DNA of 36,010 nucleotides from a virus. Below, in pieces: positions 3,177 through 10,156 of this stretch (positions are counted from its first letter, which is position 1; each line of letters begins with the position of its first letter). The position numbers were made by a program, and so were the translations under genes. The DNA lies in UHGV virus genome UHGV-0022223; one strand, written 5' to 3'. The notes under the pieces are model-generated. The model had not been told where the DNA came from and searched no databases. It worked only from the letters and a program-made list of their open reading frames with translations.

Positions 3177-3470
3177 ATGAAATCAGTAACTAAGCCATGT
3201 CCTATTTGTGGTGAAGGCGCTTTGTCTTTTAACCAGACAAATCAGTTGGTTAACATCAAAGTAAATCCACCAACTATTCGTGAAGTTCCATCAGTGGTTT
3301 ATGTTTGCGATACACACGGATGGTTTTCACTTTCAGAACAGATAAACAGCCTCGTTACATCAACAGACGACCCTGTGGCTAAACAAAAATTGGCAGTTAT
3401 CGTCAAAGAGCGATATGTGCCGGAACATGATCAGCCGTTAGCTCTGAAACCTATTGAGTCGCTCGCATAA
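3177..3470 (+). CDS. Hypothetical zinc-ribbon protein (CPICG...C..H), AT-rich, opposite orientation inside leftward early operon
   Basis: 97-aa ORF with RBS AAGGA; visibly lower GC than flanks; converges on and overlaps the 3451..3720 gene by 20 bp. Confidence 0.5.
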   Translation: MKSVTKPCPICGEGALSFNQTNQLVNIKVNPPTIREVPSVVYVCDTHGWFSLSEQINSLVTSTDDPVAKQKLAVIVKERYVPEHDQPLALKPIESLA

Positions 3471-3720
3471 GGTCTTTTCGGCTCTCACTGCGATATCCCA
3501 GGCGGTACATTTTCACGTAGGCTTTGCCACGAGGAATGCCGCCTGTTTTGTTGAATCTCTGCTGGGCGCGACGATGGTGTTTTGCTTCAGGGCTGTTTGA
3601 TCCTTTCCCGCCATCCGACCGCGAACTCGGGAGTTGCATTGGCTTTTGGCGTGAATCGAATTTACGTGCCCAGCACGCTCCAAAGCCGATCATTCCTGTT
3701 TTCTTCGTATTACCTTTCAT
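3451..3720 (-). CDS. Small basic protein, first gene downstream of PL-like promoter (function unknown; possible N-like regulator)
   Basis: Track ORF 3451..3765 starts at TTG; internal ATG at 3720 has RBS AAGGAG 7 nt upstream. K/R-rich 89-aa product. Confidence 0.5.
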   Translation of the reverse strand: MKGNTKKTGMIGFGACWARKFDSRQKPMQLPSSRSDGGKGSNSPEAKHHRRAQQRFNKTGGIPRGKAYVKMYRLGYRSESRKDLMRATQ

Positions 3721-3869
3721 CTCAATCTCCTTTGCCCTTGTCGCCAGGCTGGCGGAACGTTTCAAACCTACTGCGCGTTAATCTCACCACCTCATTCCGG
3801 TCTTCGTATGCCCCGGACGGCTACTTCGTGGGCTCCATGCCTGGGTGGTTCGTGGTGCGTCTTGGTGAT

Positions 3870-3945
3870 TGCATATTAAGCCTGAGACTTAAATCATGTC
3901 AAGCTCCAGGCGAAATGTGATTGTAAGTTTCAGGCTTAATCGTGA
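3870..3945 (-). promoter_or_regulatory. OL/PL-like region: leftward promoter with repressor operator sites
   Basis: Minus strand reads TTGACA (plus 3897-3902), 18-bp spacer, TAATAT; operator-like 17-mers TTAAGCCTGAGACTTAA (3876-3892) and TAAGTTTCAGGCTTAAT (3924-3940) match those beside the repressor gene. Confidence 0.55.
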
Positions 3946-3964
3946 TGTTCACCGAATTGCAGGC

Positions 3965-3998
3965 AAAAAAAATCCCGACGCTAAGGTCGAGATCGGGG
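3965..3998 (-). terminator. Rho-independent terminator (minus strand) upstream of PL
   Basis: Stem TCCCGA (3973-3978) / TCGGGG (3993-3998), followed on the minus strand by an 8-nt U tract (plus A8 at 3965-3972). Confidence 0.5.
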
Positions 3999-4043
3999 AC
4001 TTCGTGGCTGGGTGTTGGCGGCTGAGATGGTGGGTGAGGGTGT

Positions 4044-4073
4044 AAAAAACCCGGCGCTGTGGCCGGGTTTTTT
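4044..4073. terminator. Bidirectional rho-independent terminator ending the moron operon
   Basis: A6, then CCCGGC-gctgtg-GCCGGG, then T6; sits just after the stop of the 34-aa ORF on the minus strand. Confidence 0.7.
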
Positions 4074-4075
4074 CA

Positions 4076-4180
4076 TTACTGCTGGTTAAATCCTTTCGGC
4101 GAGTGCTGCTGTTCTTTATTACCAAATTTTTGATTTACAATGATTTTATAAGCGTTATTGAGAGCTTGCTTTATAGACAT
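4076..4180 (-). CDS. Small 34-aa basic peptide (MSIKQALNNAYKIIVNQKFGNKEQQHSPKGFNQQ), coupled to upstream 434-aa gene
   Basis: ATG at 4180 with RBS AAGGAG 6 nt upstream, 17 nt after the 434-aa gene stop; stop followed directly by the terminator. Below the track length cutoff. Confidence 0.45.
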   Translation of the reverse strand: MSIKQALNNAYKIIVNQKFGNKEQQHSPKGFNQQ

Positions 4181-4197
4181 TAATATCTCCTTATGTG

Positions 4198-5502
4198 TTA
4201 TTGACGATTAAAGTAGTTAGAGTTTAGCTCTTTAGGGAAGTAGTGTTTACGATTTACCCAAACAAATCCATCAACTTTTGATATCACAGCGACATCAACA
4301 GGCCCACCGACAGTTTCATAATCATGTGATACTTTTCTTTTGAATGCAGTGATGTTCACTAATGATTCGGCCATATACGCAAGATCTGCCTTCCCAAGTG
4401 ATTGCAACATCGATATCATTTTATTTGTATGGTTATTAACAATATAGCTTTCAAGTTTAGTATCGTGATCTTGTAAAAGTACGTTTTTGAGTTCCTCAAT
4501 TTCACTGGAGAAGTGATTGGCTAGTACTCCATTGTTCATTGCAGGGAAAATATTGCTAGAAACATAATGATTAAGCCGATCAAAAACTTCCTCTGTAAGA
4601 GTTCTGTTAAAATTAATGATGTTAGGGTTGCACCCATCAATGAAAGTTACTACTTCATCTTCTTGAGCAAATGGTATAACAAACCCCATATTGGTTACCT
4701 CATTATGGGATTTCTCATCAATATTATGGATCATCAATTTGTTTTTAAAAATGCCGTAGATATGAAGAGTGCAAATGGAAGGGTAATATTCTTCCTCTCC
4801 ATAACCTGTTATAACAATCCCTGAATATGTACGACTAGCATGGACTTTGAAAATTAAACAAGTGGAATATAATATGACTTTTTCCATAAGCTCTTGCTGT
4901 ATATTTTCACAGTTATCAAGAACAATAATTGATGAAATGTATGGCGATATTAAATCTTGTATATATGCTAAAGCATCATTAAACTCTTCTGTATCAAACC
5001 CTTCGAAAAAGAGATTATTCCTTAAGATTCCTATCTCTAAATCAAAGGCTTGCTTAACTATGTTTTGAAAAATAACATTGTCGAGTTCAACGGCGGGGTT
5101 CATTGTTAAATAGTTTACTACATTATTATCATTAATGTATCTCATCAAACCTTTGAGGTTATCAACAACAAGGTTTATAACGCAAGCCTCTCTCATTTCA
5201 TTTGTTATAAGGTCTGAGTTACCATTGATGAATTTTACAAAGTCATTAACATATTCTTTAATGGTAGGGAAACTAGTTTTCCCCAATTGTTTTCTATAGG
5301 ATTTAATTATAAGTTCCCACGGTGCGCCACCCAGTGTCGCATTATTATAAATCATGATCCCCACGGGATGGTGTTTAGATAGTTCGAATAGTTTTTCCGC
5401 ACTATTATTTATTTTTACTAATCTATTATGCTCTGTGGTGACTGCAGAGTCAGCAGCAAGGGCGATTCCAGTATTATTTATTACAACAATCTCAGCTGTC
5501 AT
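4198..5502 (-). CDS. 434-aa protein with proteasome-beta/HslV-like Ntn-hydrolase sequence blocks and a large internal insertion; AT-rich moron
   Basis: Long ORF in strongly AT-rich DNA. Starts MTAEIVVINNTGIALAADSAVT...KLF (Thr after Met, Asp about 16 residues later, Lys before LF), has a TGYGEEE block, and ends GGPVDVAVISKVDGFV, which closely resembles the proteasome beta C-terminal strand recalled from memory. Confidence 0.8.
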   Translation of the reverse strand: MTAEIVVINNTGIALAADSAVTTEHNRLVKINNSAEKLFELSKHHPVGIMIYNNATLGGAPWELIIKSYRKQLGKTSFPTIKEYVNDFVKFINGNSDLITNEMREACVINLVVDNLKGLMRYINDNNVVNYLTMNPAVELDNVIFQNIVKQAFDLEIGILRNNLFFEGFDTEEFNDALAYIQDLISPYISSIIVLDNCENIQQELMEKVILYSTCLIFKVHASRTYSGIVITGYGEEEYYPSICTLHIYGIFKNKLMIHNIDEKSHNEVTNMGFVIPFAQEDEVVTFIDGCNPNIINFNRTLTEEVFDRLNHYVSSNIFPAMNNGVLANHFSSEIEELKNVLLQDHDTKLESYIVNNHTNKMISMLQSLGKADLAYMAESLVNITAFKRKVSHDYETVGGPVDVAVISKVDGFVWVNRKHYFPKELNSNYFNRQ

Positions 5503-5526
5503 TGCAAAACATCCCGTGTAGTAGTG

Positions 5527-5560
5527 ATAAATATTAATTAAATTGATAGTTTTTCAATCT
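5527..5560 (-). promoter_or_regulatory. Candidate promoter for the moron operon
   Basis: Minus strand reads TTGAAA (plus 5552-5557) followed 15-18 nt later by an AT-rich -10 candidate (TAATAT/TATTTA); weak RBS. Alternatively read through from the repressor gene. Confidence 0.25.
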
Positions 5561-5641
5561 AACATAAATGGCGGAATCACCCCCCAGTAAAGACATCATT
5601 GTCTCATGGGAACTAAAAATTCAGGACAAACCTAAAGCGAT

Positions 5642-6028
5642 TCAGTCCCCCTGCGAGCGAATCCGCCCCTTCATGTACTTCTCATACAGCTCATCCAGTT
5701 CCTTAAGACGTATCGAAAAGATGCGGAGCATGTTCTGTTGCTCTTCTTCTGGCAGCTGGCGGTAGAGCTCAAGCAGGCGCTGTTCGTCCGGCTTAAGTCC
5801 GTCCTTCTCGCCGACATCCTCACCGAGTAACCAAGGCACAGACACGCCAGCTGCGTCAGCGACAGCGAGAGCTGATTTCTTGCTGATCACGCCTTTTTTA
5901 AACCAGCCGTTCACAGACTGCGGGGTTACCCCAGCAACCCTGGCCATATCGGATTTGGTCATACCGCGCCCGTTCAGCTCTGAAAGGCGTTCGACAAGTA
6001 TCGGATTAAGTACGGTTTTCTCTTTCAT
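5642..6028 (-). CDS. Prophage repressor, HTH XRE family, DicA/RacR-like (no S24 peptidase domain)
   Basis: 128 aa; N-terminal HTH (MTKSDMARVAGVTPQSVNGWF) and a C-terminal LLELYRQLPEEEQ segment resembling DicA from memory; divergent from a Cro-like gene with operators between them. Confidence 0.75.
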   Translation of the reverse strand: MKEKTVLNPILVERLSELNGRGMTKSDMARVAGVTPQSVNGWFKKGVISKKSALAVADAAGVSVPWLLGEDVGEKDGLKPDEQRLLELYRQLPEEEQQNMLRIFSIRLKELDELYEKYMKGRIRSQGD

Positions 6029-6132
6029 GGTTAGAAGAATAAGCCTTTTGCTTAAATTTGAAAATTCGCCTCAGGCTTGACAATAAATTAAGTCTCAGGC
6101 TTAATTTGATTGTATTCAAATCGGAGACAACG
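6029..6132. promoter_or_regulatory. OR-like region: divergent PR/PRM-type promoters with three operator sites
   Basis: Operator-like sites at 6040-6055 (TAAGCCTTTTGCTTAA), 6068-6080 (GCCTCAGGCTTGA) and 6088-6104 (TTAAGTCTCAGGCTTAA); TTGACA at 6077-6082 gives a rightward promoter. Confidence 0.6.
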
Positions 6133-6351
6133 ATGAACGGGTTAACGAAAGCCATTAAGTCCGCTGGCACTGCAACAAATCTCGCAACCATGCTGGGCAT
6201 CAAGCCGATGTCGGTCAGCCGCTGGAAAAACCGGTACCAGGGCGTGGTGCCTGCTGATCGGGTCCTTCAAATCTACGCGGCTACCGGCGTAACTCCACAC
6301 GAGCTGCGCCCTGATCTCTATCCAAACCCAAGTGACGGTTTACCAAAGTAA
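6133..6351 (+). CDS. Cro-like / YdaS-family HTH regulator
   Basis: Internal ATG of track ORF 6058..6351 with RBS GGAGA; 73 aa with HTH (TATNLATMLGIKPMSVSRW); divergent from the repressor. Confidence 0.7.
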   Translation: MNGLTKAIKSAGTATNLATMLGIKPMSVSRWKNRYQGVVPADRVLQIYAATGVTPHELRPDLYPNPSDGLPK

Positions 6352-6362
6352 GGAATGTAACT

Positions 6363-6902
6363 ATGCAATCACTTACGTATCAACAGAGTAACGGGTTCAT
6401 TTCAGCAGCGCTGATAAATCGCGCTCAACCAAAACCGGGCGTCAGTTGTGGTGCCCTCCGTGATGCTGTTCGCGCCTGGTCAGCAGTAGCCGGGCAGGAC
6501 GTTGTAACGGCCCTGATCGTTGAAGAGTGGCACCGGATAGGTGGCGAAGGTATCGACTTTCCGGCAGATCACAGCCGTGCCCGGCAGAAGCTGTTCCGCT
6601 TCTTGGATAACCATTTCAACAGCGAACGGTACCGCGAGAACGTCCGCCAGCTGACGCCGGCAATCCTCGCTGTCCTGCCGATTGAATACCGCAATCGTCT
6701 GCTACCAGAAGACAACGTAATGGCTCGTCTGGCAAGGCTGGAGAAGGAAACCAGCGAAGCGAAGATTGCTGTCGCAATGGATGCGCCACGTCATCAGAAG
6801 CTGAAAGAGTTGAGCGAGGGGATCGTGGAGATGTATCGCGTTGACCCTGGGTTAACCGGTCCGTTGATGGAAATGGTGCAGATTATGCTGGGGGCTATAT
6901 GA
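6363..6902 (+). CDS. YdaT-like / CII-position regulator (hypothetical)
   Basis: 179-aa ORF with RBS AAGGAA directly after the cro-like gene; position matches Rac ydaT. Confidence 0.5.
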   Translation: MQSLTYQQSNGFISAALINRAQPKPGVSCGALRDAVRAWSAVAGQDVVTALIVEEWHRIGGEGIDFPADHSRARQKLFRFLDNHFNSERYRENVRQLTPAILAVLPIEYRNRLLPEDNVMARLARLEKETSEAKIAVAMDAPRHQKLKELSEGIVEMYRVDPGLTGPLMEMVQIMLGAI

Positions 6903-9495: not shown

Positions 9496-9538
9496 TTGAT
9501 CATTTCCGCGCATAGGTATACTGTATAAAAACACAGTA
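9496..9538 (+). promoter_or_regulatory. Promoter with overlapping LexA (SOS) box for the dinI-like gene
   Basis: TTGATC, about 15-bp spacer, TATACT; TACTGTATAAAAACACAGTA at 9519-9538 fits the LexA consensus CTGT-N8-ACAG. Confidence 0.75.
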
Positions 9539-9556
9539 AATGCAATGGGGGCCATT

Positions 9557-9790
9557 ATGAAAGTTGAATTAACCATTGATCGCATGAAAGAACTTCCTAA
9601 AGGCGCAGTACCAGCACTGGAGAAAGAACTGCTTAAGCGCCTGAATGATCACTATGACAATTGCAGGCTCACAATCCGCCGTGCCGGGGCCGATGGGTTA
9701 AGTGTTTTTGGTGGTGACAAGGACGATAAAAAGAAAATTGAATCAATCCTCCAGGATACCTGGGAAAGCGCTGACGACTGGTTTTATTAG
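9557..9790 (+). CDS. dinI: DinI-family DNA-damage-inducible protein
   Basis: MKVELTIDR... with C-terminal ILQDTWESADDWFY resembling E. coli DinI from memory; second ATG of the track ORF; LexA box upstream. Confidence 0.8.
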   Translation: MKVELTIDRMKELPKGAVPALEKELLKRLNDHYDNCRLTIRRAGADGLSVFGGDKDDKKKIESILQDTWESADDWFY

Positions 9791-9907
9791 AATTGCGCTT
9801 AAGGCTGGCGCGCATTTTTCAGAATACCGCAATTTGCGTAACCCTCTGATGCTGCTGCCGACAATCTTTAATCGCGTCTGTTAGTCGCTCGAAGGGAGAA
9901 CATAAAT

Positions 9908-10156
9908 GTGAGTGATTCAGCTTTGCAAACGTCAGAAGACAACTGGTATGACATTGTAAGAAGGTCTGACGGCTGCGTGGTGTTTAGCTTTCCTTCATCG
10001 GGCAGGCATCTAATTTATCGCGTCAATGGCATGGTTTCTATGCGGCCTTTGCTGGATGATGAAGAGGTCTTTACTCCTAATGGTTTTATGCAGTTTATTC
10101 ACCGTCTCGGCTACCGGGTAACCCCACCTTCTGATAATATGAAATCAACGGTCTGA
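9908..10156 (+). CDS. Hypothetical protein (GTG start)
   Basis: 82-aa ORF with RBS AAGGGAGA before the GTG. Confidence 0.45.
   Translation: MSDSALQTSEDNWYDIVRRSDGCVVFSFPSSGRHLIYRVNGMVSMRPLLDDEEVFTPNGFMQFIHRLGYRVTPPSDNMKSTV

Follow-up and report, generated by a model that had tools for sequence, protein, structure and literature searches.

Mirror-image operator triplets of a probable lambda-type switch, with an apparently undescribed recognition specificity, in a Rac-like Escherichia coli prophage

Two clusters of 17-bp pseudo-palindromes lie 2.2 kb apart in UHGV-0022223, a viral genome of 36,010 nucleotides (the window, meaning the whole stretch of DNA analysed) whose sequence identifies its backbone as that of a Rac-like lambdoid Escherichia coli prophage. 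These sites are very likely the left (OL1, OL2 and OL3) and right (OR1, OR2 and OR3) operators of a lambda-type lysis-lysogeny switch, read by a short helix-turn-helix (HTH) repressor encoded between them. We document their architecture, their conservation among relatives and their co-variation with the HTH segments of the repressor and of its Cro-like partner. From these features and from characterised switches we infer binding, occupancy order, autoregulation, a leaderless start, an antirepressor route and OL-OR looping. The region is an ordinary lambdoid DicA-type immunity region and leaves the established picture of such switches unchanged. What is new is apparently limited to a DNA-recognition specificity that has not been described before, together with a comparative series; the operator sequence did not occur in the literature searched.

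Read along the direction of their promoters, the two clusters are superimposable: O3 comes first, then O2 over a TTGACA hexamer, then O1 over a −10 element. They thus form mirror-image triplets with the consensus TTAAGYCTnAGRCTTAA. The OL triplet spans 3876-3939 and consists of OL1 (3876-3892, TTAAGCCTGAGACTTAA), OL2 (3899-3915, TCAAGCTCCAGGCGAAA), which mirrors OR2, and OL3 (3923-3939, GTAAGTTTCAGGCTTAA), a family-conserved site with 2 mismatches to OR1. The OR triplet spans 6039-6104, with OR3 at 6039-6055 (ATAAGCCTTTTGCTTAA), OR2 at 6064-6080 (ATTCGCCTCAGGCTTGA) and OR1 at 6088-6104 (TTAAGTCTCAGGCTTAA). Within both triplets the centres are 23-25 bp apart (23 bp for OL1-OL2 and 24 bp for OL2-OL3), with 6-8 bp of spacer between neighbouring 17-bp sites. 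A preliminary description of this DNA had claimed that 3876-3892 is the exact reverse complement of 6088-6104, and direct reading bears this out. It had also listed three related copies, all of which exist in slightly different registers: 3923-3939 rather than 3924-3940, 6039-6055 rather than 6040-6055, and 6064-6080 rather than 6068-6080. These five sites are real; a sixth, OL2 at 3899-3915, had been overlooked. A repeat finder also paired 3897-3914 with 6065-6082 (18 nt, 83%), a match that includes the overlapping TTGACA. The TTAAGYC half-sites stand one helical turn apart, a spacing that would suit a dimer of the 128-amino-acid repressor.

The probability that these sites are a chance likeness of AT-rich near-palindromes in intergenic DNA is negligible. 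The bare skeleton TTAAG-N7-CTTAA, searched with 2 mismatches, is about as common in the window as expected (12 found versus 11 expected), and a few isolated perfect palindromes of this type turn up in unrelated low-GC viral contigs. The signal therefore resides in the full half-site TTAAGYCT and in clustering. With a tolerance of 3 mismatches, the 36-kb window holds the 17-mer at three places and no others (3876, 3923 and 6088), and the 5 matches observed compare with a mean of 0.04 in shuffles, none of 100 of which reached 5. A symmetric weight matrix made from the six window sites gives OL1 and OR1, the strongest, 24.5 each, followed by OL3 (19.9), OR2 (17.6), OR3 (16.8) and OL2 (14.7); the best other position in the window scores 11.5. 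Chance would also have to produce two clusters of three with a 23-25 bp period, conserved in more than 50 distinct relatives and absent from 325 kb around heteroimmune repressors. Shuffles, matrix scores and the counts of the family survey described below effectively refute it.

Each cluster overlaps a TTGACA-containing promoter, in agreement with the preliminary description. On the left, a promoter scan independently called the outward promoter PL (TTGACA-18-TAATAT, 10/12 matches, minus strand, 3902->3873). Its −35 hexamer (TTGACA, 3897-3902) is overlapped by OL2 and its −10 (TAATAT, 3873-3878) and spacer by OL1; TGTCAAG is invariant in 54 distinct OL regions. The predicted PL start, at ~3866-3867, coincides with a mosaic boundary at 3868/3869. 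On the right, the plus-strand promoter PR has a perfect TTGACA at 6077-6082, within OR2, where CTTGA is invariant in 52 distinct OR regions. A 17-nt spacer separates it from a putative −10, CTTAAT (6100-6105, 4/6 matches), and OR1 lies over this spacer and hexamer. The candidate repressor promoter, PRM, would run on the minus strand from a −35 TTTTCA (6059-6064), adjoining OR2, across a 17-nt spacer to a −10 TATTCT (6036-6041) that is overlapped by OR3 and lies 7 nt upstream of the repressor ATG at 6028. No Shine-Dalgarno sequence precedes this ATG. The geometry suggests a weak, activator-dependent promoter and a leaderless or near-leaderless repressor mRNA; the mRNA of the prophage repressor gene paaR2 is experimentally leaderless, as is that of lambda cI (PMC8630535). 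Separately, a perfect inverted repeat, ATTTGA-TTGTAT-TCAAAT (6104-6121), lies between the PR −10 and the ribosome-binding site of the Cro-like gene; one half of the published YdaT site, TTGATT, falls within it, and the stretch is poorly conserved among the 52 relatives.

The predicted immunity repressor (5642-6028, minus strand) has 128 amino acids, with an N-terminal HTH_3 domain (E 1e-6), the only Pfam match in the protein, and a C-terminal helical hairpin. In an AlphaFold2 (AF2) model with a predicted local distance difference test (pLDDT) score of 86.5, a five-helix HTH domain is followed by this hairpin, with helices at 8-19, 24-31, 35-44, 49-59, 63-67, 79-89 and 93-125 (model numbering, which is full-length numbering minus 1). 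Pfam found no S24 peptidase domain; this, the length of 128 amino acids and the modelled helical hairpin after residue 79 place the repressor outside the cleavable CI/LexA-type family. The name 'DicA-like' given to it earlier is apt, since it shares 29% identity with K-12 DicA over 111 amino acids spanning both domains (pairwise E 4e-12). On this homology we assign it as a DicA-type short prophage repressor, a distant DicA homologue of apparently undescribed specificity. Among known structures, the best match of its HTH domain was the 434 repressor (E 0.03), a weak alignment that puts the type-variable residues discussed below in the recognition helix; a sequence search of the PDB with the full-length protein returned just ubiquitin low-complexity matches.

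The repressor gene is divergent from ydaS/cro, and OR3-OR1 occupy the 104-bp intergenic region between them. The Cro analogue (6133-6351, plus strand) is a 72-amino-acid YdaS-family protein (Pfam YdaS_toxin, E 1.3e-14; P22_Cro, E 1.2e-6). It is followed by a CII analogue of the YdaT family (6363-6902, plus strand; 179 amino acids; Pfam YdaT_toxin, E 2.5e-23), which matches phrog_163, 'CII-like transcriptional activator' (E 4.6e-54), with the replication genes O and P after it. Prophages of several E. coli chromosomes, with RecE and YdaE on the left, match the region at 99.8% identity.

To define the family, we surveyed 106 loci coding for repressor relatives, 72 of the type found in the window (type A) and 34 of other types. 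Operators in relatives were defined by alignments and fixed offsets; palindrome-picking alone was too noisy. The type-A matrix gave 270 matches in the 72 type-A loci and none in the 34 loci of other types (325 kb). Both clusters were present in 70 of 72 type-A loci, with 4 stray matches in 693 kb. Comparison of the distinct type-A regions, 52 for OR and 54 for OL, shows conserved half-sites and variable centres and spacers. On the left, OL1 conserves TTAAG and CTTAA, and OL2 has an invariant left half and a GGCGAA half conserved in at least 70% of the family. On the right, OR3 is almost invariant, OR2 conserves ATTCG and CTTGA around a variable centre, and TAAG and GGCTTAA are invariant in OR1. 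Among 33 distinct O1 sequences, positions 3-5, 13 and 16 are constant and the centre position is free. OL1 and OR1 are identical at 17/17 positions in just 2 of 39 distinct family pairs; that identity appears peculiar to the lineage of the window, the conserved element being the half-sites. Searching 2.9 million IMG/VR viral contigs with the motif alone returned 100 stretches. Of the 90 examined, 73 carried a type-A repressor gene, with the motif 59-76 bp from that gene in 68; the others were truncated or held isolated single palindromes in low-GC contigs. Together these counts respond to a condition that the preliminary description had set for its own refutation, a motif of similar frequency across the host genome.

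Four variants of the recognition helix occur in the 106 loci (PQSVNGWFKKG, PQAVNGWFKKG, KQAVtGWFRTG and (A/S)QSVNNWFVRG), and every variant goes with a distinct palindrome, present at OR and OL alike. The Cro HTH segment, tabulated directly, co-varies with the repressor/operator type; single-linkage clustering of whole Cro proteins merged all types. Types A and B have a near-identical scaffold and differ in the recognition helix by just Ser38 -> Ala (full-length numbering) and in helix 2 by Ser26 -> Ala and Val31 -> Ile; the main difference between their operators is G -> A at position 5 of the half-site. With differences this small, one or two substitutions may suffice to create a new immunity. 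The mirror-image O3-O2-O1 arrangement, the phylogenetic footprints and this co-variation together argue that the operator family proposed in the preliminary description is genuine.

Co-variation also bears on which protein reads the sites. They might be read mainly or only by YdaS, or by YdaT, with the 128-amino-acid protein binding elsewhere or not being the immunity repressor at all. The Cro HTH tracks operator type as tightly as the repressor HTH does, so comparative data alone cannot assign the reader, and YdaT-family proteins are also DNA binders (PMC9986795). Nevertheless, we consider this quite unlikely. The repressor recognition helix varies exactly with operator type, and the two regulators share operators in every characterised switch of this layout, namely lambda, P22, DicA/DicC and PaaR2/YdaS (PMC8630535; bioRxiv 10.1101/2023.04.14.536235). 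Moreover, the OL cluster controls a promoter whose silencing only a lysogenic repressor needs, and the published YdaT site, TTGATT-N6-AATCAA, is unlike the motif (PMC9986795).

Heteroimmune relatives provide a natural swap of the proposed repressor-operator system. ET881 (locus L003) and SZQ1 (L002) have the same backbone and a different repressor. On the left, both are identical to the window up to 3868, diverge across an ~85-bp OL block and become common again from ~3956; in L003 the cassette gene of the window belongs to this common sequence. To the right, the repressor gene keeps ~85-90% DNA identity in its C-terminal half but has diverged in its HTH half, as have the OR region and most of cro. 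In place of the type-A motif, the palindrome RTAAAYCnnnGRTTTAY occupies the same six positions. OL, OR and the DNA-reading segments of repressor and Cro are thus exchanged as a set around an unchanged cargo.

These relatives also bear on the idea that the inverted 17-mers are terminal inverted repeats of a mobile cassette that brought in the repressor and a 434-amino-acid gene. An inverted repeat of 26 nt with 88% complementarity (3872-3897 and 6083-6108) does bracket 2.2 kb holding an AT-rich, foreign-looking gene. However, there are three spaced copies per end rather than one, the copies overlap promoters, and no transposase or recombinase lies between the repeats (open reading frames (ORFs) and Pfam matches). 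L003 keeps the cassette but carries different repeats, and the repeats co-vary with HTH sequences. The inverted arrangement also persists without cargo, at an O1-O1 distance of 641 bp, and with dozens of unrelated cargos, up to 2548 bp. Transposon ends are very improbable, and we rejected them on the copy number per end, the lack of a transposase and the persistence of the repeats without cargo. What does hold from the preliminary description is that the OL and OR analogues are parted by an inserted cassette, the interval in relatives ranging from no cargo (641 bp) to ~2.5 kb with many unrelated genes.

Taking the sites as operators, we propose the following switch. Repressor dimers on O1 and O2 would occlude the −10 and −35 elements of the outward promoters PR and PL; PR would drive cro/ydaS, ydaT, O and P, and PL the leftward early operon, so that occlusion would silence the lytic genes. 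OR2, adjoining the weak PRM −35, would permit positive autoregulation, and OR3, over the PRM −10, negative autoregulation when repressor is in excess or when YdaS, the Cro analogue, binds. PRM would transcribe the repressor gene as a leaderless or near-leaderless mRNA, with the cargo gene probably on the same transcript, up to terminators at 4073-3971. In a repressor without a cleavage domain, induction would fall to an antirepressor from a LexA-controlled dinI-ORF82 operon, as in the Gifsy and Qin prophages.

The candidate operon begins with a LexA box (9519-9538, plus strand, TACTGTATAAAAACACAGTA), which has a perfect CTGT-N8-ACAG core upstream of a dinI homologue (9545-9790, plus strand; Pfam DinI, E 4.3e-26), the first gene of the putative SOS-controlled unit. 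Next comes ORF82 (9908-10156, plus strand), a candidate antirepressor of 82 amino acids (phrog_340) in the Gifsy antirepressor position. The full order is a terminator-like T-rich hairpin, the box, dinI, ORF82 and a DUF1367/NinB gene, the same gene order as that reported for the Gifsy antirepressor operon (PMC3121763). Of 15 phage records with an ORF82 homologue, 13 fall among the 23 with a repressor homologue, and an ORF82 homologue is present in every one of the seven distinct phages with a repressor at least 60% identical to that of the window. An antirepressor is expected because the repressor has no autocleavage domain, and by analogy with Gifsy the dinI-ORF82 module at 9519-10156 would be its likely, though weakly supported, source.

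Several observations weigh against parts of this proposal. The survey counts are inflated by prophage relatedness, since many of the loci are related and the counts are not independent events, and the matrix used to scan related loci was made from the window's own sites. OL2 (3899-3915) and OR3 (6039-6055) drop to background in leave-one-out scoring, so the case for both is made by position, spacing and conservation, and not by score. Two promoters went uncalled by the scan: PR, whose −10 (CTTAAT) is a poor match to the consensus and was missed because position 2 of the hexamer is not A, and PRM, which reaches just 8/12 consensus matches, under the scan threshold. Co-variation by itself does not reveal whether repressor or Cro reads the sites. 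ORF82 has no sequence similarity to the known antirepressor Rem, so its role as an antirepressor stays hypothetical; a search of the phage collection with ORF82 gave no Gifsy records, and the 5-kb flanks of the fetched loci are mostly too short to assess linkage to dinI-ORF82.

The closest characterised relative of the window repressor is DicA, which with DicC forms the switch of the Qin prophage of E. coli K-12. DicA, too, is a short HTH repressor (135 amino acids versus 128 here) without an Ala-Gly cleavage site or a peptidase domain, and its gene is divergent from a Cro-like gene. Qin has palindromes at its PR analogue and, downstream of the repressor gene, at its PL analogue; DicA acts on three operators at dicCp and three at dicBp (bioRxiv 10.1101/2023.04.14.536235). 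DicA is inactivated by an antirepressor and not by cleavage, the route that we propose for the window repressor. The two systems differ in operator sequence (TGTTAGT...ACTAACA in Qin versus TTAAGYCTnAGRCTTAA here) and in the HTH domain, which in DicA is close to that of the P22 C2 repressor (E 8e-20) and in the window repressor is not. In Qin, moreover, OL lies 546 bp from OR without cargo between them, and ORF82 is unrelated to Rem, the known antirepressor.

The best-studied analogue of the whole arrangement, cargo included, is PaaR2/YdaS/YdaT of CP-933P (Sp12) in E. coli O157:H7 (PMC8630535); we located paaR2 as Sakai ECs_2279 (L110:48659-49522, Sp12). There, PaaR2 and YdaS were studied by electrophoretic mobility shift assays, footprinting and reporter fusions, the leaderless PRM transcript was demonstrated and OL1-3 were identified (PMC8630535). 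The gene order matches: a short repressor gene is followed on one side by cargo and OL1-3/PL and flanked on its other side by YdaS, YdaT and O. The intergenic region, holding PRM, PR and repeated palindromes, measures 97 bp in that system and 104 bp here. The partners are again of the YdaS and YdaT families, and a leaderless mRNA, proven for paaR2, fits the geometry of the window. However, PaaR2 and the window repressor have N-terminal DNA-binding domains of unrelated sequence: in BLASTP just the C-terminal 43 residues align (21% identity, E 9e-4), and a PDB search with the window repressor did not find 7nkv, which with 8c3k represents the PaaR2 DNA-binding domain. The published half-site consensus (GTTTAGTAA) differs from ours, the YdaS proteins lack pairwise similarity (E 26), and the cargo is the toxin-antitoxin pair paaA2-parE2 instead of a proteasome-like gene.

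PaaR2, DicA and the window repressor have a C-terminal motif in common, L..LLE/Q.(F/Y)..(L/F)PE.EQ, which is weakly shared with PaaR2. Its presence behind unrelated or distant N-termini suggests an exchangeable oligomerisation module in short prophage repressors. By analogy, a C-terminal hairpin of the DicA/PaaR2 type may let the window repressor oligomerise and loop OL to OR.

In lambda, each side has three 17-bp pseudo-palindromic operators with 6-8 bp spacers, O1 and O2 lie over the outward promoters and O3 over PRM, and the cI mRNA is leaderless. OL and OR are ~2.2-2.4 kb apart, with the repressor gene and the cargo rexAB between them. The window matches each point of this operator layout at the sequence level, with candidate −10 elements for PR and PRM. 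It differs in that its repressor lacks the LexA-like S24 autocleavage domain (128 versus 237 amino acids) and has another C-terminal oligomerisation region, in that proteins of the YdaS and YdaT families stand in for Cro and CII, and in an unrelated operator sequence.

The Gifsy modules, which pair the repressors GfoR, GfhR and GtgR with GfoA, GfhA and GftA, likewise use short non-cleavable repressors (PMC3121763). Their LexA box lies ~1 kb downstream of the replication genes, after a terminator-like hairpin and ahead of a dinI homologue, a small ORF and another conserved gene (PMC3121763), an arrangement like that of the window. They differ in sequence: neither the window repressor nor ORF82 has detectable similarity to the Gifsy records in the phage collection. 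The Rac prophage of E. coli K-12, with RacR/YdaS/YdaT, shares the backbone of the window (RecE, YdaE, YdaS, YdaT and O-like genes) and the position of the repressor gene. RacR itself, however, has 158 amino acids, aligns over only a 32-residue HTH stretch (E 5e-6) and belongs to a different family with a different specificity.

Between the repressor gene and OL lies the cargo, or cassette, gene (4198-5502, minus strand), an AT-rich, foreign-looking gene for a 434-amino-acid protein with a proteasome-beta-like fold that has no match in PADLOC or Pfam. Just downstream of it is a bidirectional terminator-like hairpin (4044-4073), a perfect 12-bp inverted repeat (AAAAAACCCGGC/GCCGGGTTTTTT) that is common to the window and L003. 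A terminator scan predicts a second, intrinsic terminator closing the repressor-cassette transcript at 3971-3994 (minus strand; a 9-pair stem, then a T-run), in place of which L002 carries a perfect hairpin. Both stand between the repressor-cassette unit and OL. Inside the cassette coding sequence is a second perfect CTGT-N8-ACAG LexA-like box (4897-4912, CTGTATATTTTCACAG), which may be a chance occurrence in AT-rich DNA.

Across loci L004-L107, the interval from the repressor stop codon to OL3 is a hypervariable cargo slot of 0 to ~2.4 kb. It holds dozens of unrelated gene families, co-oriented with the repressor and presumably expressed in the lysogen. Among them are the PADLOC candidates PDC-M66A/B (a HipA-like kinase with DUF3037) and PDC-M63A/B, and a PIN-domain protein; the same cargos adjoin different immunity types. 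Defence genes beside prophage repressors are a known theme (rexAB; BstA, PMC8585504), and the proteasome-beta-like enzyme of the window could represent a new exclusion or anti-phage activity under the lysogenic promoter. Possible, but doubtful in our judgement, is a wider conjunction, in which the repressor family is a natural and minimal specificity series and, jointly, hairpin-driven looping joins OL to OR across an exchangeable defence-cargo slot that here holds such a new enzyme.

The sites constitute a precise, testable operator map for a widespread and unstudied immunity type of enterobacterial lambdoid prophages, the relatives of which include the viable phages mEp237, SEN34, SW-37 and PHB10. 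The four repressor/operator/Cro specificity classes offer material for the study of heteroimmunity evolution or for orthogonal repressor-operator pairs. The interval between repressor and OL is likewise defined as a cargo slot, with defence candidates and a proteasome-like protein among its contents.

Beyond OL, the PL leader was considered as a structured RNA and dropped as such: its 148 nt (3721-3868, minus strand) fold no more stably than shuffles (z = +1.4), and in an Rfam scan of the whole window every family fell below its threshold. A stretch of ~140 nt within it (3730-3868) is near-identical in heteroimmune E. coli prophages, has no ORF and matches non-coding DNA of phage mEp237 at 96% identity; it may contain a nutL-type site. 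The first ORF of the PL operon (3451-3720, minus strand; 89 amino acids) has a good Shine-Dalgarno sequence and encodes a conserved phage protein (phrog_29236). Convergent with it is an ORF at 3177-3470 (plus strand) for a 97-amino-acid, zinc-ribbon-like conserved phage protein (phrog_31519). Left of 3730 the window departs from its closest E. coli relatives, which marks another mosaic joint.

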